Shown here one piece after another: positions 7,556 through 61,226 of a stretch of 64,000 nt of DNA. Below the pieces are notes generated by a model that saw only the letters and a list, made by a program, of their open reading frames with translations, ran no database searches and was not told where the DNA came from. Source of the stretch: Sphyrna mokarran (taxonomy: Eukaryota); assembly GCA_024679065.1 (NCBI GenBank), contig JAGIQG010000009.1, forward strand, positions 86,614,001 through 86,678,000. Reading direction: 5' to 3'. Each line of letters opens with the position of its first letter. Within the stretch, counting starts at the first letter, position 1. A program made the position numbers and the translations under genes.

Positions 7556-7760
7556 TAATTTCAACTGAATGTGCATATTTCCATTCCACATTTACTACAA
7601 GCTTCTCTGCACGTCAAATGAGGTCCTTGATGCAACATTTTCCTTTAATTCATAACTAGTATTTGGATAGTTCAATACTGTCTAAATCGGCTGCATACAT
7701 CTTTGAAACAAAAATTTTGGAATTATCTCCAGGTAATTTTATGTTTCCTGTTACTTACAG

Positions 7761-8698
7761 TCAATTTGGTGGCAATTGTGATACTAGCTCGAGGGAAATG
7801 TGGCCTGTCCAAATGTATCACTCGATACCTGATTGCCATGGCAGTGGCGGATCTAACAGTGGTCATTGTTGATGTGGTGTTACACCGGATCAATAACATG
7901 TATTTTCCCTTGAATTATTTGTTTCTGACTCCTGTGTGCATTTTAAACTTTGTCATGTATATTGTAGCTGTTGACTGTTCTGTCTGGTTTACTGTTGCCT
8001 TCACTTTTGATCGCTTTGTAACAATTTGTTGTCAGAAACTGCAATCAAAGTTTTGCACGGAGAAAAGAGCAACGGTGGTTATCGCCACCATTTTTGTGTT
8101 AAGTTGTGTGAGAAGCATTCCATTTTATTTTGCAGATGAAGCTGCCTATATTAATGACAACCTGCCATGGCATTGTGTTCCTACAGCTGCCTATCTCACT
8201 TCCCCTTTGTGGAAAACATATGAATGGATTGATAGCCTCATAACGCCTCTATTGCCATTCTGTTTAATTTTATTGTTCAATGCTCTCACTGTTAAACATA
8301 TTGTAGCAGCAAATAAAGTTCGGATGCATCTCCGGCGAAGCAATGAGAATCACGAAGATCCAGAGATGAAGAATCGGAGAAAATCTTTGATTTTACTTTT
8401 CACTATTTCTGCAAATTTCATACTGCTATGGATGACGTACGTTGTGCATTCGGTAAATTGGCCAGTGATGAATTTTAATTATACAGACAAATATTACAGC
8501 AACTCGATATACATAACCCAACAAGTTGGATTTATGCTGCAGCTTCTTTGTTCCTGCACCAACACATGCATCTATGGCCTGACTCAAAGGAAATTCAGAG
8601 TGGAGCTGAAAAATGGAATCAATTACCTGCTCACACTGAATGGAAAAATATGTAAACAAAACAGAAAGGACATCGACTTGATGGAACTTCATGTTTAA
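7761..8698 (+). CDS. Orphan rhodopsin-class GPCR (GPR139/GPR142-like) coding exon 2; full CDS join(4668..4737,7761..8698), 335 aa
   Basis: Acceptor ttcctgttacttacAG at 7760. Uninterrupted 7TM frame: VNLVAIVIL, YLIAMAVADL (TM2), AFTFDRF (TM3), LLPFCLILLFN (TM5), FILLWMT (TM6), SCTNTCIY (TM7), RKFR helix 8. AATAAA at 8827. Confidence 0.9.
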
Positions 8699-17895: not shown

Positions 17896-18254
17896 ACTTG
17901 GGAATCCGTATTTCACTGCATCATCTTCTTCATTAAGTAACAAAGGCCAGAACTGCCAACGGGACATTCTATCCATTTTCCTTTCCATTTGGTTAAATGC
18001 CCGGTTCCCCCAAGATTGGGAAAGAAATATAATTTTAATCTGTTGAAACAATTTTTATTTCTCCTATGAATTAGCACTCTACTATTATATCCCCGTAATT
18101 TTTATTGCAGTTGTGAAATCCACTGTTGATTTTTTTGTAGTGGAGTCTGGCTGGATTAAATCCATTAATTAATTAAGTCACAAAGTTTCAAATTTCAATC
18201 TGAAGTTTCTACTCGCAGACTCAGAACTTCCACACTTTTTCCTTGTCCCTACGG

Positions 18255-18480
18255 TCAACTTCGTGATAATTGTCATCTGGTCTTGGAGTAATTGTAGACT
18301 CCGCAAAACTGACAGTTGTAACCTGGCGGTGGCTGTGGCTATGGCTGATTTATTGATCCTTATCCTTGATCTGATTCTGAGCCATAAATCTATTGTTTAT
18401 TGTGTGCTGTATGTTGTGGTGTGCTGCAGAGTTTGCCACAAAGACAGTCTCAGCCTTTGGTTTACTCATTGTTCGCCCTC
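18255..18480 (+). pseudogene. Decayed paralogue of the GPR139-like receptor (TM1-TM3 remnant of exon 2)
   Basis: Reads VNFVIIVIWSWSNCRLRK...AVAMADLLILILDLIL, matching VNLVAIVILARGKCGLSK...AMAVADLTVVIVDVVL of the intact gene. A later SLWFT resembles SVWFT. The acceptor reads tacGG|tcaac versus tacAG|tcaat in the intact gene. The rest of the receptor is not recognisable. Confidence 0.7.
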
Positions 18481-19429
18481 CATCGTGCACAGTATCATCA
18501 ATCACATCTTTGTTTATTTGAATTTTAGCGGGCAATGACATTTCAAGATGTGAGAGGGAAACAGTCAAGATGACTGTGCCCCTGGGCATTGATTCTGTAA
18601 GGACTACACTTTACTTATCCAATGTTTCCATCAGCAGAGTGAAAGATCCAGTGAGAAATTGCCAGCAGCCCAAGATCTCTATACTTTCACTGAACAAAAG
18701 TTTCATTCTCGGGAAACAGGCCCTGTTCGATGGTTTTTATTATCTAATCACTGACTTTGTATTTCTGCTGTCTGAATAATTGGTTGTAATCGGAAATAAA
18801 ATTTACGATATTGATCACTGCTTCATATCCCTGTTTTGTTTCTCTTTCCGATCAGGTAAAAAAGGTGCCTGAGGTGGAATGAGGCTGGGAACAGATGTGG
18901 GAATTCCAGGAAATGGGAAGGGGAGGTCAGTGCAGGGAAGCACAAAGTTCAGAATGACCCTTTTAGAAATGGACTGATATTAGATAGGAGTCCCACACTA
19001 TTAGCACTTTGTCCAAAGTTCAAGTTATCTCACAAATACCGTAGTGTGGAGAAGGATTTGAGGGTTTAGACACGGTTGAAGATTCCAAGGAGACTGATTC
19101 AGAAGCCGGGAAGTTGTTTCAGGATACAGGGAAGGGATTCATAGGGAGGGTAAGATGTTCACCAGGCAGACCAGTTTCATGGACAGAGCAATGATTTCAA
19201 TGGCTGAGAAAATGATTCAGGATGTGAAGATTCAGAGGGTGGGGAAGGGTTCAGTGGGAGGAGGGGGAGGGTTAATCTATGAGAGGCGTGATAAAAATGG
19301 GTGAAAAAAAGTTCAGTGTTTAGAGAAGGGTTTTGGTGGATGGTTAAGTGGTTCATAGTGAATGGATTGATGAAGTAAGACGTTTCTTTCATAGAGAAAG
19401 TACTTTTGTATCACAAAAGATTTAATAGT

Positions 19430-30337: not shown

Positions 30338-31299
30338 AATGCTCCTGGCTCTTCTGATCTGTGTAGGTAGTTTTGAGGTGGTTAGAATTAGATTTTAATT
30401 AAAAGAGTCAGGCTTATTAAAATAAATCAATGGAAGACATGAGTCTTGGTTGAATTAACATTACAAAGTCAAAGAATCCATCTTCTTTTGTAATGGTTTC
30501 TTCAATTTTGCAGCATCAGGAAAAGGAAAATCATGTTAAACCAATTTATGAAAGTTTTTTGAAGGTGACATATGCTGTGGATGTACTGATTTAATTTTAC
30601 CAATGACATTTGATGAGATGCCACATGAAACATTATTGCCAAAAATAAAAATTATGAAGTGACGCAACAAAAAGGGTGCAATTACTGTGATGGGATAATA
30701 TTGTAGGCCCCTCAACTGCCACCGGGACATCGAGGAATGAATATGTAGGCAGATAATGGAAAGATGCAACAACAACAACAGGGTTATCATAGTGGTTAAC
30801 TTCCCCATTTGGAGGTCCTTCACCGGTGGTAACTGCAAGCTAATTCTTGGATTTGCTTTTCTTTCGTTACCTCAAGCAGCTGTTTAACTATGAGATGATA
30901 CTGTTTTCCCAGCATTTAGAATGCACAGAGGATGCCAGTGGAGGAGGTAGGGGGGAGTAGGAGGGAGAGCACAGCGTGGCACTAGAGCACAAGGAGACAG
31001 AGGGTCATTTGAAATACTTAGAGGGTGAAGATCATGTGAAGGGTGGGGACCTTTGACCTTTTCCTTTAACTAGTGTCCCACAGCACTGAGGCAGGCCTTT
31101 TGAACATCTGCTCTGCGCACAGCAGCCCCTTGTTGGCTAGATCGACCTCAGCTCACAGCTGGCTGCCAACACCAATGGATTCGAATTTTCCCCCCTCGGC
31201 CTTCCCTGGCTGCTTCAAGGATAAAAATCCAGGTGGATACTTATTCCGAAAAATTTCAAATCGCAGGGGCTGCTACAACATGAAGGCCAGAATTAAGCA

Positions 31300-31510
31300 T
31301 AAAAGTAGAAAATGTTGGAAAGATTCAGTGGGTCTAATAAGTAGTATATGTGGGGAAAGAAAACAATTAACATTTTGAGTTCAAATAGATATTTAGAGCT
31401 CAAATGTCAATTCTTATTTCTCTCCCCACAGATACTATCAGACATGCTGAGTTTTTTTGAGCAATTTCTGTTATTTCAGATTTCCAGTATTGGCAATATT
31501 TTACTTTTTT
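31300..31510. repeat. Imperfect inverted repeat of a Penelope-like terminal fragment
   Basis: tgtggggaaagaaaacaattaacattttgagttc versus gagctcaaatgtcaattcttatttctctccccaca. Confidence 0.55.
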
Positions 31511-31799
31511 ACCAGAATTAGATTGGTGCAGTGTTTATTTAGTAACTGAACCTGGTTACATTACCAAATATTGTTCATTTACTCTCATTTGTAGAGATTG
31601 GGAGGGTCACCAATGAAGTGATCTCTGACACTAAGCTCATGAAAAGTATCAGAGGAAAACTTGATTAGGCTCTTAATACTAATAATATTATATACTGTCG
31701 GGTTAGACACCTACTCTTGTCACTTACTTGTTGCACATCTTTGCATTTAATTGATTTTTTTGTACCTTTTGGTACTTTATTCCCAATCAAAAATCCAAT

Positions 31800-32050
31800 T
31801 CAAAATAGATCCAAGCTAACAAGACAGGTCATACTTCCTATCTTGGGCTCAATCAAACACGATCCAAGCTGACAGAATAAGACATTACACCCCCTCCTGG
31901 GCTCGACCTGATCTTCAGCTTAACCAAAAGGCCCAGATGGTTTTTAAAATTTTGCTTCAAGTGAAGCCTCAGTATGACCTCATTGGCCAAGACTTGATTT
32001 TAGCCATAAGATCGAGAAGCGATAAGGATGAGACCAAGCTGGATCAAGCT
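31800..32050. repeat. Degenerate tandem repeat with GATCCAAGCT core
   Basis: gatccaagctaacaagaca...ctgggctc recurs about every 50-60 bp. Confidence 0.45.
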
Positions 32051-32844
32051 GTTTGTTTATTGACAAACGGGTCACAGTTGAATGAAGTTTATGCAATTTC
32101 AAAACAACTGATAAATTACAGTTGGCTGATGGAATATAGAAACGTGTTGCAATTATAGAAAATTCCTTTTGTTGAACATTAAAATTCAAATTTTTTTTTA
32201 AAACACAAATTCAAATTTCAGCATAAAATCTTTCAGACATGGCTGTTCATTATTTTGCCATTCATGCCTTTTCTGGATCCATCTTTTGTTTATTTACTTG
32301 TCCCATTCTGATTCCACTCGGTTCTGACCCACCAACTCTTTTTGTCATTTAATGTCTCCTACTTCTGCCTTGTTACAGACCTTCCTTTTTGTCTCTTCCT
32401 CCCTCCCCCACTTGATCTTCCTGAAAACTATATTTTCCCAATTCTCAAACTTTTCAGAATTTACTGTTTTTAATCCAAAAAGCTCATGTTTTGATGCTGG
32501 TCTCAGCAACATTATTCCAGCATCTGTACCAGTTACTGAGTGCTCTGCAGACCTTGTATTCAGTTGGTATCTTCGTCTATGAAACTGAATACTGCTCACA
32601 ACATCGTAGTACAATTCTCTCACATTGGTTTGTAAGAAATGGTGGTTCTCCATTTGTTCAGTCTTCTGCTCCAATGATATTCAGCACAGTGTTGTGAGCA
32701 CTCCCTGTTTGTGCCACTGCAGTGGACACCACCCCACAGCCACACAGCATTATGTATAATTTAGCAGCAGGACCAGTAGGGAAGACTAATGATTCTCCTA
32801 GCAATATTCTTCTTGCAATATTTAACTCTTTCAGTCTGTAAAGC

Positions 32845-33125
32845 AAAGTAAAGTTTATTTATTAGTCACAGGTAAAGCTCACATTAACAGTAACTTCACT
32901 GTGAAATTCCCCTTGTTGCCACAATCTGGTGCCTGTTTGGGTCAATGCACCTAACCAACAGGTCTTTCAGAATGTGGAAGGAATCCAAAGCACCCAGAGG
33001 AAACCCACATAGACACGAGGAAAATGTGCAAACTCCACACAGATGGTGACCCAAGCCGGGAATCAAACCCGGGTCTCTAGTGCTGTGAAGCACCAGCGCT
33101 ACCACTGTGCTAATGTGCTGCCCCA
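32845..33125 (-). mobile_element. tRNA-derived SINE with alternative tail
   Basis: Reverse-complement match to 54131-54424. Confidence 0.8.
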
Positions 33126-33390
33126 CCAGATGATTCTCTTACCAATATCCTTCCTCCAATCCTTTCAGTCTGATCATTTGTAATGATAAAACTTACAATT
33201 TCTTAAAGTTATTTCAATTTCTTGTTTAAAGTTCTGTGAGTAAATTTTTTGGACTGAAAATAAAAGGTATCGATGTCTCCAGTGGATTTTATATCTCATC
33301 GCCCAGTCTCTCTCTTTAAATGTCTTAATAGTACCAGCCATGGAATTCTCATTATTTGGAGGTACTAATTATATCCTTGAGAACATTCCA

Positions 33391-33622
33391 TGGGGCTGCA
33401 CAGTGGTTAGCACTGCTGACTTTCAGCGCCAGGGACCCGGGTTTGATTTCCAGCTTGGGTCGCTGTGTGGAGTTTGCGCATTATCCCCATATCTGTGAGA
33501 GTTTCCTCTGGGTGCTCCGGTTTCCTCTGGATGCTGTGGTTAAGGTGTGCGGATTAATTGGTTGGCCATGCTAAATTGCCCCTTAGTGTCAGGTAGACTA
33601 GCCAGGATAAGTGTATGGGGTT
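33391..33622 (+). mobile_element. tRNA-derived SINE (3'-truncated)
   Basis: cagtggttagcactgct...cgccagggacccgggtttgatt head and core. Confidence 0.8.
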
Positions 33623-34161
33623 ATTCTTTCAGCCAATCTTTCTCAAAATGTGTGTTTTCTATATCAATAATACTCATCAAAAATGTCTATTTCCTTCAAA
33701 TGTAACAGCCTTTGATATTTTGCCTCATATGCTTCACATTTTCCACTCCTCATTCTTTTCCTCTCATTATTTGAACGCTGAAAGAAAATATATTTCCAAT
33801 TCTATTTTGATAAATGGCTTCTCTTTTAATATAATTAGGAAAAGTTTTTCAGATCTTTCTTTCCCTTGTGAACAAAGCTGGTCATCATCATCTATTTCAA
33901 TTCCTATGTTCCTTGTAAATACTGCCAGTTCTTCCAGACTCCTGGATACTCTGACTAGTTATTTCCAGGGCGTTTTCAATGATGATCATAACGTCTTAGT
34001 AAACTCTACATTGTTTCTCCTTCCTTGTAGCTGGTTAAGTGTTCTGTAATATTGTTATCTAGATTACATTTTACTGTATCAAGGTCAGAGACATTATTTG
34101 CAGCATTTGAAGTGTCTGTTTGGAAGGAACTCTTGTTCTTGTTTAGTTGTGGTTTTGTTAC

Positions 34162-34308
34162 CTTCCATTGGGATATGTGAACTTTTTAACCCACTCGGAA
34201 AAGGCTCCAGGGTGAGATGAGGGTCAGATTTGCTCAGATCCAGTTCCACTTTATTATCCATAGCTTCTGGATGATGGTGAGATGGGTTGGTCTCCAAAAA
34301 CAGTTCTG
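34162..34308 (-). CDS. Candidate cytoplasmic exon of the MHC class I-like gene (or an exon of an adjacent NLR-like gene)
   Basis: Acceptor gtgtgtgtttcAG, 147-nt open phase 1-1 frame AELFLETNPSHHHPEAMDNKVELDLSKSDPHLTLEPFPSGLKSSHIPME, donor G|GTAAC. Non-repetitive sequence; no homology recognised. Confidence 0.4.
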
Positions 34309-34667
34309 CTGAAACACACACCCAGTACAGAGGCATTAAAAAAGATGGATTTGAAGACATGAAGGAAGCAATCAATAAAAGAAAGCACGTGAGAACTACG
34401 AAACTAAATTAACAAAGAACATAAAAATAATTTGAGGTTTTTCAGGAACTGATCACAGAAGGAAAATCAAGAAAGGGACAGGACAGAAAAAGGGCCACTC
34501 GGAATACACATGACTAAGGGTCAGTAATGTTGAATAATTACTTTGTCTCTGTGTTTATCAGGGAAATTAAAAGGGAAAAGACCAAAATAGAAATCAAGAT
34601 ATTGAAGATGAAAGGTGGGAAATAATTGGTAAACAAATCAAATTTAGGATAAACTGGTCTGAATGGA

Positions 34668-34990
34668 TGGGGCGACACCATAGCACAGTGGTTAGCACTG
34701 CTGCTTCACAGTTCCAGAGACTTGGGTTCGATTCCAGCTTGGGTCACTGTCAGTGTGGAGTTTGCACATTCTCCTCACGTCTGTGTGGGTTTCCTCTGGA
34801 TGCTGTGGTTTCCTCCCACAGTCCAAAGATATGCAGATCAAGTTTTCTTGTCATGCTAAACTTGCCCTTAGTGTCCTGAAATGCATAGGTTAGAGGGATT
34901 AGTGAGTAAATATGTAGGGATATGGATGGAATTGTGGTTGATGCAGACTTGATGGGCCAAATAGCCTCTTTCTATACTGTAGGATTTATG
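34668..34990 (+). mobile_element. tRNA-derived SINE with CR1-type tail
   Basis: cagtggttagcactgctg...gggttcgattcc head, core and tail. Confidence 0.82.
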
Positions 34991-37874
34991 TGATTATATC
35001 CATATATATTATGAGAAATTAAGATTGCAGAGACACTTTATAATTACATAAGAACTCATCAGCAAATGGAATAATGCCAGAGGACTGAAGGATAACTATC
35101 ATGATTCCAATACACAAAAGAAGGCATTAGAATATGTCCAAGGATCGAAGGAACAGTGAGTTTATGATACACAATAAAGATAACCCTTACTCAAAGATGT
35201 GGTTTAAAAAATGCCTAGACTAGGATTTTCTTCTCCTGTACATGTAGGAGGGGTTTGGCAAAAAACTTTACAAGAATATCAAAGTCGCATTTCACATTAA
35301 TGTCAAAGCAGGAAGTGATTATGTCAGTGATAGGCTGCCTTTCCCATTGGTCAGGTGTTGGGAACTTCATTTTAATATATTTGCATACCATTTTTGGGTC
35401 CATGTGCTAGAATCATACCCCCCTCTTCCACCTCCAGTCAAAAAAATCCATCCATGATGGCATGATGTCAGAATGGCATGATATATCTGGTGAGAAATAT
35501 TCCAAGAGGAACTCAGATGAGTGCAGAGCTCAGCTGGGAGAGGAAAAGTTAAAAATGCCAGGGTAATGCTGGTGTAAGGTACTAGTTTTGTACTAGAGGG
35601 TGCAGTTGGATAGAGAATATTGTTGGTGTGCTCATGATGTGTTGGGTGGCCCTTAAAAATGGCACCCAGGTCATCAAAGTGGTGGACTGATGTTGGGGCA
35701 GGTGAATCAGAAGCTGCCTACCAGCAATGCAACTTGAAACCCTTGCTTTCCATTCTTCAAAGTCCTGCACTGTATGGTGGAAAATGTCACCATTGCCATC
35801 AGGGGGCTCAACACCACTTTTCATGCCTGACACCAGACTTTGTCAATAGCAGAAAAAAATCCCACTCCAAAAAACATGTAGTTTACATGGATTTCAAATG
35901 CAAATGTAAATTTCTGATCAATCTTATTGACATTTTTGAAGAAGTAATAGAAATTGTGAAATTGTGTATTTGAATTTTCCAGAAGTCTTCAATACAGTGG
36001 GCAACATTTTCTGGCCATTCACACCAGCAAGTTCTTTCAGTCCCGCCTATGGTGCACCCCTGCCATAGGTTTCATGGCAGTGAAGAGTGCTTTCAACGGG
36101 GAACTCCAGGGTAGGACAAGATTCATTCGCCAGTCAATGGTGGGCCACTTCCTGCACCATGAAACATGCAGCAGATTGTTCAATAAATCCATCCAATGTT
36201 AACATTTGGAAATCTCAAAACTTGGACCAGTGCATGTAAAGTCAAGGTATAGTAGAAAAGTGGATAGTAAAATTAAACAGAAAACAGAGAGTAAGGGTTA
36301 TAGGCATCAAGAATAATTTAGATGTTTCAGAAAATAACTAAGTTTTAAGAATATAGCTTTTATGTTGCTGGTTAAAAAGTTTAATTGTAGAGGAATAACA
36401 GCATCTGGCTAAGAAACTGCAAGCAACCCTGAAGTCAATGTATTTCAAACCAGCTTGAAGTTAATTACACTTCAAAGTTAACCAGTATTTACCTTGCAAG
36501 ATCAGAGCAATGGGTGTAACGATTTCCATAGAAACCCTACAGTGCAGAAAGAGGCCATTCAGCCCATCGAGTTTGCACTGACAACAGTCCCACCTGTATT
36601 TACCCAGTAATCCCTCTAACTTACGCATATACTAAGGGGCAATTTAGCTTGGCCAATCCACCTAACCCACACATCTTTGGACTTTCAACAGTGGATGCCC
36701 TATTGTTAAGCTTCAAGTGTTGCTGAAGTGTCTTTACCTGCGTCAATAAAAGATTTATGTTTGGTATGAAATTTTCAGATAATAGGAAACTGAAAAAAAG
36801 ATTGACAAAGACGAGAAATTCTTCGTAGGTCAGAGTCTGGAGAAAACACACCATATTCATGTGCAACATATATATGTTCATGGGATGTGGCCATTGCTGA
36901 CCAGACTGGTATTTATTGCCCATCACTAACCACCATCAAGAAGATGGTGGTGAACCATTTACCTGAAATGTTGCATGTGGTATAGCTACAGCCACAGTGC
37001 TGAAAAGGAAGGAGTTCCAGGATCTTGACCTAACGACAGTGATGGAACAACAATACAGTTCCAAGTCAGGATGGCGATGGATTGAGGGGAAATTATAGGT
37101 GGTGGTGTGCCCATGCATTCAGTGTTCTAGCCCTTCTAGGTTATAGAAGTTGTAGGTTTGAAAGACTCTGTTGAAGGAACCTTGGTGAGTTGCTGTTGTA
37201 TATCTTGTCGATGATATACACTGCTGCCACTGTGCGTCTTCGATGGTATCATGTGTCTCGATTTTTGGTGCAGCTGCATTCATATAGGCAAGTGAAGAGT
37301 TTTTCATCACTCCTGGCTTGTAGCTTGTAGATGGTGGACAGGTTTAAGGGGATCAGAAGGAAGTTGCTCTCTGCAGTAGTCCCAAACTCTGACCTGCTCT
37401 GGTAGCCACAGTATTTAATGGCTAGTCCATGTTCATTTTCTGATTTAAGCTAACCCCGAAGAAATTGACAGTAATTCAGTGATGGTAATGTCAAGGGCAA
37501 TGGTTAGATACTCTCTAGGTTAGTTTAGATGGATTAGCCATGGTAAATTTGTGGGGTTACGGGGTAAGATATTCTGTCAGAGAGCTAGTATAGACTTGAT
37601 AGGCTGAATGGCCTCCTTCTGCACTGTAGGGATTATGTGATTCTATGAAATCACCTAGGTTTATTTTAAGAGAAATACAACTGAAAATTGGGAAGCTATG
37701 TTAAACTAATACACATCCTTGTTTCGATCACAAAGAACAGAGCACATAATCCTAGCCTTCATATTCAATAAAGTCAATTCATTCACACTGTTCACCTCAG
37801 TTCTACATTCCCTTCTTTTTCACTCTCTCCTCTGTGTTACATATTCCAAGTATTAGAAATTCTCCATTCCTCAC

Positions 37875-38039
37875 CTGATTCCCCAGATCCAGATTCTCCA
37901 TTCTCTGATTCTTTTTCGCCTGTCTGTGGCCTTTTCCAAATGGCTATTGCAATTATTCCCAATATAGCAGCCAGTATACTGATTACTGATCCAGCTATAA
38001 TTGCAAGTTGTGAGTGCCCACCACTGCTTTCTGGTACTT
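37875..38039 (-). CDS. MHC class I-like heavy chain exon 5 (connecting peptide, transmembrane, start of tail)
   Basis: Acceptor atgtttttcAG, phase 1. EVPESSGGHSQ-LAIIAGSVISILAAILGIIAIAIW-KRPQTGEKESENGESGSGES, then donor G|GTGAGG. Read-through would stop at 37837..37839 (356 aa total). Confidence 0.8.
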
Positions 38040-48540: not shown

Positions 48541-48819
48541 CCCACTGATGGATCTTGGGCTCTGCCAGGCTGCTGTGTTCAATTTGACAGGAATATTGAT
48601 TCTCATCTCCAGCATTAATTTCAATCACTTTCTGGATCTGATGGGTGTCATTGTGGTTCGGTCGAACCCCTGAGGATAGTGTCTCAGACATTACCTCTCC
48701 ATTCCTTAGCCAAGTAACCTCAATGTCTGCAGGATAAAATCCAGTAACCAGGCAGGAGAGAGTGAACAGCTTATATTGACCAATGGGCTCATTTCTCGTG
48801 ATGAAGACATCAGGCTGAA
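48541..48819 (-). CDS. MHC class I-like heavy chain exon 4 (alpha3, Ig C1-set)
   Basis: 279-nt phase 1-1 exon: VQPDVFIT...LSCLVTGFYPADIEVTWLRNG...GVRPNHNDTHQ...YSCQIEHSSL...W. Donor G|GTAAG. Confidence 0.92.
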
Positions 48820-49004: not shown

Positions 49005-49280
49005 CTTTCTTATTGAGATATTCTTTTCCAAAATATAGACGTGATTTTAAACGTTCAACAAGTTCTACTTCCATCAACCATTTCCAAAACGTGTTCCAGG
49101 ATTCATCAAAATCCCATTTCTCCTTAGTCTTCACTGCATTGTGATGTGTTGCGACCCATCTCATTCTGTCTGATTCTAAACTAATATAGTCCTTTCCATC
49201 AAATCCAACACTCATCGATCTCTTAATGGAGCCATCTTCACTGACCTCAACGTTCCTTATCCATTGCAGAACGTGTATTC
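49005..49280 (-). CDS. MHC class I-like heavy chain exon 3 (alpha2 domain, cysteine-free)
   Basis: 276-nt phase 1-1 exon with AG/GT ends. GIHVLQW...EDG...GFDGKDYISL...WVA...AVKTKEKWD...LKSRLYFGKEYL aligns to class I alpha2 motifs. Confidence 0.9.
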
Positions 49281-61174: not shown

Positions 61175-61226
61175 CGGAAGAGATGCAGGAAAAACACAAA
61201 GAGATGTAGAAAAGGACCAGCAACAT
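61175..61226 (-). CDS. MHC class I-like heavy chain exon 1 (signal peptide MLLVLFYISLCFSCISS)
   Basis: ATG at 61226, hydrophobic 17-aa leader plus 1 nt, donor G|GTAAG. TATAAA about 40 nt upstream. Confidence 0.85.

Follow-up and report, generated by a model that had tools for sequence, protein, structure and literature searches.

We analysed a 64-kb stretch of the Sphyrna mokarran genome (2.77 Gb), here called the window (G000:C1548:86614001-86678000), which lies on C1548, the contig bearing the major histocompatibility complex (MHC). The minus strand of the window carries one MHC class I gene, and downstream of its transmembrane (TM) exon, on the same strand, lie decayed remains related to the GVIN1/VLIG giant GTPases. 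We consider it very probable that a shark non-classical MHC class I gene has its 3′ end here, built from this GTPase-less relic, with the TM exon spliced into the first exon of the relic. The exons of the gene are as follows.

61175-61226, minus strand: signal-peptide exon with its ATG at 61226, matching the N-terminus of the Mustelus model P0003
60586-60846, minus strand: alpha1 exon (Pfam MHC_I, E 7e-07; AG/GT bounds)
49005-49280, minus strand: alpha2 exon (Pfam MHC_I, E 2.5e-14)
48541-48819, minus strand: alpha3 (C1-set) exon (Pfam C1-set, E 1e-15)
37875-38039, minus strand: TM exon, extended at its 3′ end, with the same extension in Mustelus P0003
34162-34308, minus strand: open 147-nt cytoplasmic exon, phase 1-1, aligning with residues 58-109 of the horn shark VLIG P0069 and present in contigs of runs X1 (0 mismatches), X2 and X17 (described below)
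32042-32835, minus strand: last exon, consisting of one codon, a stop and then a 3′ untranslated region (UTR) of VLIG C-terminal remains (residues ~1560-1676, Cys/His region), the 'LRR-like' text of the first-pass annotation; letters 353-1146 of the X1 contig

As in a MHC class I heavy chain, the frame stays open through phase-1 exons for signal peptide, alpha1, alpha2, C1-set alpha3 and TM segment. A first-pass annotation of this DNA had placed the TM exon at 38039-37875 with a phase-1 GT donor, and the sequence agrees. Within 37930-37795, the ancestral TM-exon donor, which is used in a paralogue, reads GC; a new GT donor lies after 37875, and a Gly/Glu/Ser repeat extends the exon out to it. 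A tandem Gly-Glu-Cys repeat that adjoins a paralogue (C1548:91450046-91450153) resembles this extension.

Classical MHC class Ia chains carry disulfide cysteines in alpha2. The translated alpha2 exon of the window contains zero cysteines and the predicted chain therefore has no alpha2 disulfide, so that, as translated, the gene is not classical class Ia on this point. Its alpha2 is 92% identical to that of a Mustelus model, and 50 of the 51 database matches are named shark class I proteins. Searching the genome with alpha2 gave 34 matches, all on C1548, and 17 of these are close paralogues (63-74% identity) at 90.98-91.73 Mb. Other class I lineages on the same contig (85791443-85816343, 89629569, 93317299 and 95.58-95.84 Mb) have 27-38% alpha2 identity. 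The UEA family of shark class Ib genes is described as multicopy and located in a UDA/UEA cluster (PMC10751288; PMC12562908). Two UEA traits, a multicopy class Ib cluster on the MHC contig and shark-only named matches (50 named of 51, in a word-limited search), are found here together with the standard exon plan; however, the window subgroup has a long VLIG-derived tail in place of a short Ser/Thr tail, and the window copy lies ~4.3 Mb away from its own paralogue cluster. The UEA lineage is reportedly, from a 2021 study, present in sharks and not in rays or chimaeras. The gene is thus likely a non-classical MHC class I gene of the UEA family, a label set by cluster and taxon range and not by comparison with a named UEA sequence.

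The origin of the DNA downstream of the TM exon was traced through the MHC tail of the horn shark. Used as a query, this tail retrieved three proteins among 79 candidates, namely two MHC isoforms and the VLIG P0069 (XP_067865890, horn shark, 1725 aa, interferon-induced very large GTPase), the latter with 89% identity to the tail (E 2e-43). When P0069 was compared with the window by tblastn, matches were confined to 34396-32475 on the minus strand, which is the strand of the gene, and fell into four ordered blocks (VLIG residues 28-149, 464-537, 1488-1562 and 1548-1676). A frameshift-aware alignment of window 34310-32475 with P0069 had 228 of 418 positions identical and a score of 584, while six shuffles scored 39-56 and the reversed protein 43. 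The alignment covers P0069 residues 56-151, 464-550, 1385-1559 and 1560-1676, with 6 stops and ~14 frameshifts. Among 29 VLIGs scored against the relic, the best ten (393-584) belong to one shark subfamily, and nine of the ten lie on, or are linked by accession to, chromosomes bearing these MHC class I models. Removal of the tail-coding linker left eight of the ten best at 393-467 and the other two at 329-359, whereas the CARD-bearing shark VLIGs tested scored 93-113 and three MHC controls 34-41. Judged by this alignment, the relic is the remains of a same-strand, collinear GVIN1/VLIG giant GTPase gene. Its remaining parts and the short interspersed element (SINE)-like insertions within it are listed here.

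34028-34161, minus strand: rest of the VLIG linker, in which a 1-nt insertion near 34140 shifts the frame; skipped in the contigs (alignment and ortholog models)
33777-34027, minus strand: VLIG residues ~464-550, end of the URGCP domain, the 'death-fold-like' text of the first-pass annotation (tblastn E 4.5e-10; Pfam URGCP E 0.022)
33624-33776, minus strand: VLIG residues ~1385-1449 (frameshift-aware alignment)
33398-33602, no strand given: high-copy SINE-like insertion (very high contig depth, loose ends at both edges)
33141-33384, minus strand: VLIG residues ~1484-1559, decayed (tblastn E 0.001; alignment)
32849-33120, minus strand: SINE-like insertion flanked by a ~70-nt duplication (51 blastn matches in 400 kb plus the window; 3′ ends compared)

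The relic shares collinear homology over ~420 residues with the shark MHC-chromosome subfamily (P0069, P0072 and P0192) of GVIN1/VLIG (Pfam URGCP, PF25496, and URGCP_GTPase, PF25683), but unlike these proteins it is broken. A first deletion of ~312 codons joins VLIG residue 151 to ~464 and removes most of the URGCP domain, and a second of ~830 codons (residues ~551-1384) removes the whole GTPase domain with its P-loop (P0069 residue 762). Two SINE-like elements interrupt the remainder. With no intact URGCP_GTPase domain and with stops and frameshifts, the relic as read here is not a working GVIN1/VLIG gene. Further VLIG relics were seen on C1548 at 91011006-91012015 (plus strand) and 111725772-111726751 (minus strand); the former is a C-terminal piece on the opposite strand to the relic of the VLIG-tailed paralogue 18 kb away, possibly following an inversion. 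As for the donor subfamily, residues 1-56 of P0069 resemble a signal peptide plus TM segment and align weakly to the intron ahead of 34308, so that either this VLIG is anchored in the membrane or the model, for want of its true upstream exon, runs on into the intron. A low-quality Scyliorhinus canicula model of the same subfamily (P0075) has an N-terminal AIG1/septin-like GTPase.

The first-pass annotation had interpreted the locus as a chimera of MHC class I and an NLR (NACHT-LRR) gene, with a death-fold/leucine-rich repeat (LRR) module reached through a 34162>34058 splice. It rightly saw MHC class I as continuing, in frame, into the beginning of a decayed intracellular immune gene of the same strand; the donor, however, is GVIN1/VLIG and not NLR. 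The text at 33958-33770 does look helical, and other VLIG subfamilies carry CARD or PYD, although the donor subfamily shows no CARD. Yet no death-fold, NACHT or LRR family of Pfam was matched (E<=10) by any of the 25 stop-to-stop pieces of the minus strand that lie outside the SINEs, the best match among them being to URGCP (E 0.022). The supposed death-fold-like and LRR-like stretches align instead to VLIG residues 464-550 and 1560-1676, at 50-55% identity. For the 63-aa piece at 33958-33770, no death-fold chain was found in the PDB at E<=10 (a chance match, CYLD, had E 1.5), and 0 matches at E<=0.001 were obtained among 1.84 billion representatives, a blank that is uninformative for so short and decayed a piece. 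With NLR and death-fold proteins, to which no sequence match of the relic was found, the relic has in common only the status of an intracellular innate-immunity gene. On the 0 of 25 matches and the VLIG alignment of the same bases we rejected the NLR, death-fold and LRR identity; the contigs described next also skip 34058, and we hold an NLR-derived module to be extremely improbable.

Splicing at the locus was examined with contigs of four runs (X1, X2, X17 and X18), compared with window 31000-34700, a span that leaves the TM exon outside. We guessed these runs to be RNA, none being recorded as such, and their contigs drop rare forms; the runs carrying spliced contigs come from three studies. 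In three of the four runs, contigs contained the 147-nt exon followed by the last exon at 32835, and not by sequence from 34058. Letters 206-352 of the 1146-nt X1 contig correspond to 34308-34162 and letters 353-1146 to 32835-32042, with 0 mismatches in either piece. The X2 contig has the same 34162>32835 join (letters 59-203, then 204-922), and one X17 contig carries both exon pieces, with 138 letters between them not listed. In X18, a 2.4-Gb run, a piece runs unspliced across 34134-34627. The X1 contig ends shortly after an AATAAA at 32061. The open phase 1-1 exon at 34308-34162 that the first-pass annotation had recognised is therefore real in sequence and also in the contigs of three runs.

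The onward path that it had drawn, a 103-nt intron ending at an acceptor at 34058, fared differently. Its arithmetic is correct, since this path does yield 410 aa, but the 34058 acceptor has 8 pyrimidines in 20 positions, as against 12-16 of 20 in six other acceptors of the gene. The supposed intron (34028-34161) is coding in models of horn shark, catshark and epaulette shark. Contigs of X1 and X2 gave no cover of window 33728-34099, and those of X17 slight cover. We rejected 34058 as the main route, because the contigs join 34162 to 32835 and its pyrimidine tract is weak; it may be used in a minor isoform. The T-rich 3′ end of a SINE-like element contributes some of the pyrimidine tract at 32835, and the last exon seen today likely arose through this SINE-derived acceptor.

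From ortholog models we infer that the TM exon of Sphyrna mokarran is spliced to 34308. The product so predicted has 394 aa, with 352 of 393 residues identical to Mustelus XP_078074009 and the same end point. The first VLIG exon likely became the MHC tail through read-through splicing from the TM exon; in the window, the 1-nt insertion near 34140 would break the long form of the tail, and the donor at 34162 would reach the partly SINE-derived acceptor at 32835. The 147-nt exon is the start of the captured VLIG exon, with ~16 codons ahead of the VLIG start Met followed by the acidic N-terminal linker. Since intact VLIGs of the donor subfamily start at a Met ~16 codons into this exon, the MHC tail would consist of the VLIG exon leader plus the acidic linker, with ~50 linker codons predicted to be translated within the MHC gene. 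The gene would then encode a class Ib chain of the ordinary single-pass kind, whose acidic tail of ~70 aa is rich in Ser and Glu. This predicted tail contains no GTPase, death fold, Tyr or dileucine motif, and as predicted it cannot signal as a GTPase or death fold. Its probable role is that of a spacer or of a trafficking tail under weak constraint, and not that of a signalling domain. Long-form tails of other sharks have an acidic Leu-Leu end, which we take to resemble a sorting signal.

The VLIG-derived tail occurs in MHC class I models of seven galeomorph genera (Mustelus, Scyliorhinus, Carcharodon, Cetorhinus, Heterodontus, Rhincodon and Hemiscyllium), in which the TM segment is joined to the tail exon directly or via one small exon. 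Four models from horn shark, catshark and whale shark (P0006, P0012, P0015 and P0053) skip the TM segment and would be secreted class Ib chains with a VLIG-derived tail. We built an alpha1-alpha2 tree of 55 rows, comprising 53 database proteins, the window gene and the second unit of P0067; most redundant isoforms were omitted, as were five partial proteins (P0011, P0042, P0047, P0050 and P0051). In this tree, 15 of the 16 VLIG-tailed rows fell within one 17-row clade (support 100/99), the other two rows of which are a Cetorhinus protein with a frameshifted tail and a short-tailed Heptranchias protein (P0005).

The long tails of horn shark, catshark and epaulette shark, which represent three orders, end in a shifted-frame reading of VLIG residues ~465-480, and the window DNA shows these residues in two frames. 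The first-pass annotation had proposed looking at paralogous loci, and a paralogue with the same arrangement was indeed found at C1548:91.03 Mb. Because the tails of three orders end in this shifted frame and the paralogue aligns across the same join, the first deletion appears to be old and shared. The VLIG exon was present in one of 11 paralogues within the 400 kb examined, and a genome-wide DNA search recovered only these two loci. The relic of the paralogue ends at VLIG residue ~549, within the 8.5 kb examined. This paralogous gene has two stops in alpha2 (C1548:91043747-91044013), while its Mustelus counterpart P0010 is intact. Horn-shark MHC tails are 89-90% identical to P0069, compared with ~40-50% across orders, which suggests gene conversion within the cluster. 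From the sequences we infer a single capture in the galeomorph ancestor, after which the tail would have been shortened repeatedly.

The relic could instead be a mere neighbouring pseudogene, with the MHC transcript ending at the read-through stop after the TM exon and the contigs arising from a separate or TM-less transcript. The read-through frame yields 356 aa, and the TM>34308 joint, which falls outside the span compared with contigs, is unseen in reads. In addition, the X1 contig has no overhang at the 34308 acceptor, and the 205 letters ahead of that point may belong to a different exon. The X17 contig, on the other hand, overhangs this acceptor by 4 letters, as expected from the end of the TM exon, and the models of all seven galeomorph genera, including Mustelus, join the TM segment to this exon. 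Moreover, the TM-tail intron of the window contains no short-tail exon of the type seen in the cluster and no small extra exon (best match E 0.057). We consider this alternative very improbable. In the form in which the first-pass annotation had entertained it, an unrelated pseudogene that simply sits downstream, it is wrong, since two exons of the spliced contigs come from the relic.

Besides the unseen TM joint and the X1 contig end, several points weigh against our preferred explanation that the captured relic forms the 3′ end of the MHC gene. The 34162>32835 joint was read from the positions of contig pieces and is missing from the 15 joints printed separately, the contigs are of runs whose RNA nature is a guess, and the ortholog proteins are model entries of RefSeq. 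In relatives, some models skip the TM segment (P0006, P0012 and P0015). Heptranchias P0005, with its ordinary short tail, lies inside the clade, so that either the capture was confined to galeomorphs or the tail was lost; the tail label needs four changes on the tree, two of them forced by starred branches. Finally, the tail exon differs from the window at 10 of 145 letters in X2 and 16 of 151 in X17, without gaps, and the UTR at 68 of 719 and 53 of 577, respectively, with gaps. The exon thus diverges about as much as the UTR, though gap-free, suggesting that the tail is under weak constraint at most.

A further reading differs from the best explanation in the order of events and is compatible with it. 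The captured exon may have belonged to an intact VLIG, in which case the ancestor would have been a working receptor of ~2000 aa, with MHC class I ectodomain, TM segment and giant GTPase, that some sharks still make; we regard this as possible but doubtful. The RefSeq model XP_060706692 (P0192, epaulette shark, 1932 aa) contains MHC_I, C1-set, TM, URGCP and URGCP_GTPase with an intact P-loop, and its MHC-VLIG junction is at nearly the same point as in the window gene. Between the acceptor and the VLIG Met, two intact models of different orders (P0069 and P0192) have a reading frame that is open and continuous with the VLIG, and the lengths of this stretch differ between them without a frame change. 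VLIGs also exchange N-terminal modules (CARD in 34, fn3 in 9, PYD in 3, RING in 3 and Ig V-set in 1 of the 120 VLIG matches listed), and a TM-like segment is found N-terminally in 4 of 129 long proteins, including a turtle IgV-IgC-TM-VLIG. Donor-subfamily VLIG accessions adjoin or intermix with MHC class I accessions in basking, horn, bamboo and epaulette shark.

P0192, however, has no signal peptide and is missing half of alpha1. In the tree its MHC part stands beside P0002 and not within the tail-bearing clade, and the annotation from which it comes contains MHC-MHC tandem models with the look of merges (P0002, P0067 and P0204). XP_060706692 may therefore be a prediction merge. Five intact VLIG models of the bamboo shark (C. 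punctatum) cluster have no MHC part, and four of these, for each of which there are several accessions of the same protein, begin at the Met of the linker; this suggests genes that stand alone. MHC_I occurs in 0 of the 120 VLIG matches listed (representatives only), and a stricter first look at the MHC contig of this genome did not reveal an intact VLIG, the intact or near-intact copies on C1 and C960 belonging to other subfamilies (with counts being a floor). An Atlas search with P0192 returned ordinary VLIG clusters only (0.75-0.78), a lead at most. That a full-length MHC-I-VLIG receptor of galeomorph sharks works or once worked, intact in some species with XP_060706692 as the candidate and truncated in the window gene, is as modelled a tentative proposal that we hold to be on balance unlikely. 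Among turtles, the model P0139 (Trachemys scripta elegans, 1926 aa, 4 members) has a signal peptide, IgV, IgC, TM segment and complete VLIG, resembling a B7/butyrophilin-like receptor-GTPase, and P0094 (Chelonia mydas) has a TM-like segment ahead of its VLIG.

Elsewhere in the window, positions 7649-8698 (plus strand) hold an intact single-exon open reading frame of 349 aa for a rhodopsin-family G protein-coupled receptor (7tm_1, E 1e-20), and 18173-18538 may be a decayed relative.

Capture of a terminal exon, or exaptation of a pseudogene, by intergenic splicing is a known process, as is the making of splice acceptors by SINEs. As in other such captures, an upstream gene splices in frame into an exon of a downstream gene and takes its 3′ end; here, in contrast, the tail of a MHC class I chain comes from an innate-immunity GTPase and is common to several shark orders. 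The case is an old gene chimera, a variant of exon capture. Our literature search found no report linking VLIG to shark MHC class I, although an earlier remark in papers on the UEA lineage is possible. The main text of PMC10751288 does not contain the terms GTPase, gvin or urgcp, and all 14 rows with VLIG-like genes in its supplementary spreadsheet belong to reedfish sheets.

The tail of a MHC class I chain is normally short and native to its own gene, whereas in this whole shark subfamily both the tail and the 3′ end were acquired from a GTPase gene of innate immunity. The donor GTPase subfamily appears to sit among shark class Ib genes, a location for which we found no description in our literature search. 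Human GVIN1 is described as coating cytosolic Burkholderia and blocking actin tails (bioRxiv 10.1101/2025.03.24.645074). Should the model XP_060706692, a candidate MHC-I-giant-GTPase fusion receptor, prove to be a prediction merge, a clear and old exon capture with a modest functional effect remains. If the fusion is expressed, ligand or antigen display and cell-autonomous antimicrobial defence would be combined in one polypeptide, giving a MHC class I chain that carries its own cell-autonomous effector, in parallel to the Ig-TM-VLIG models of turtles.

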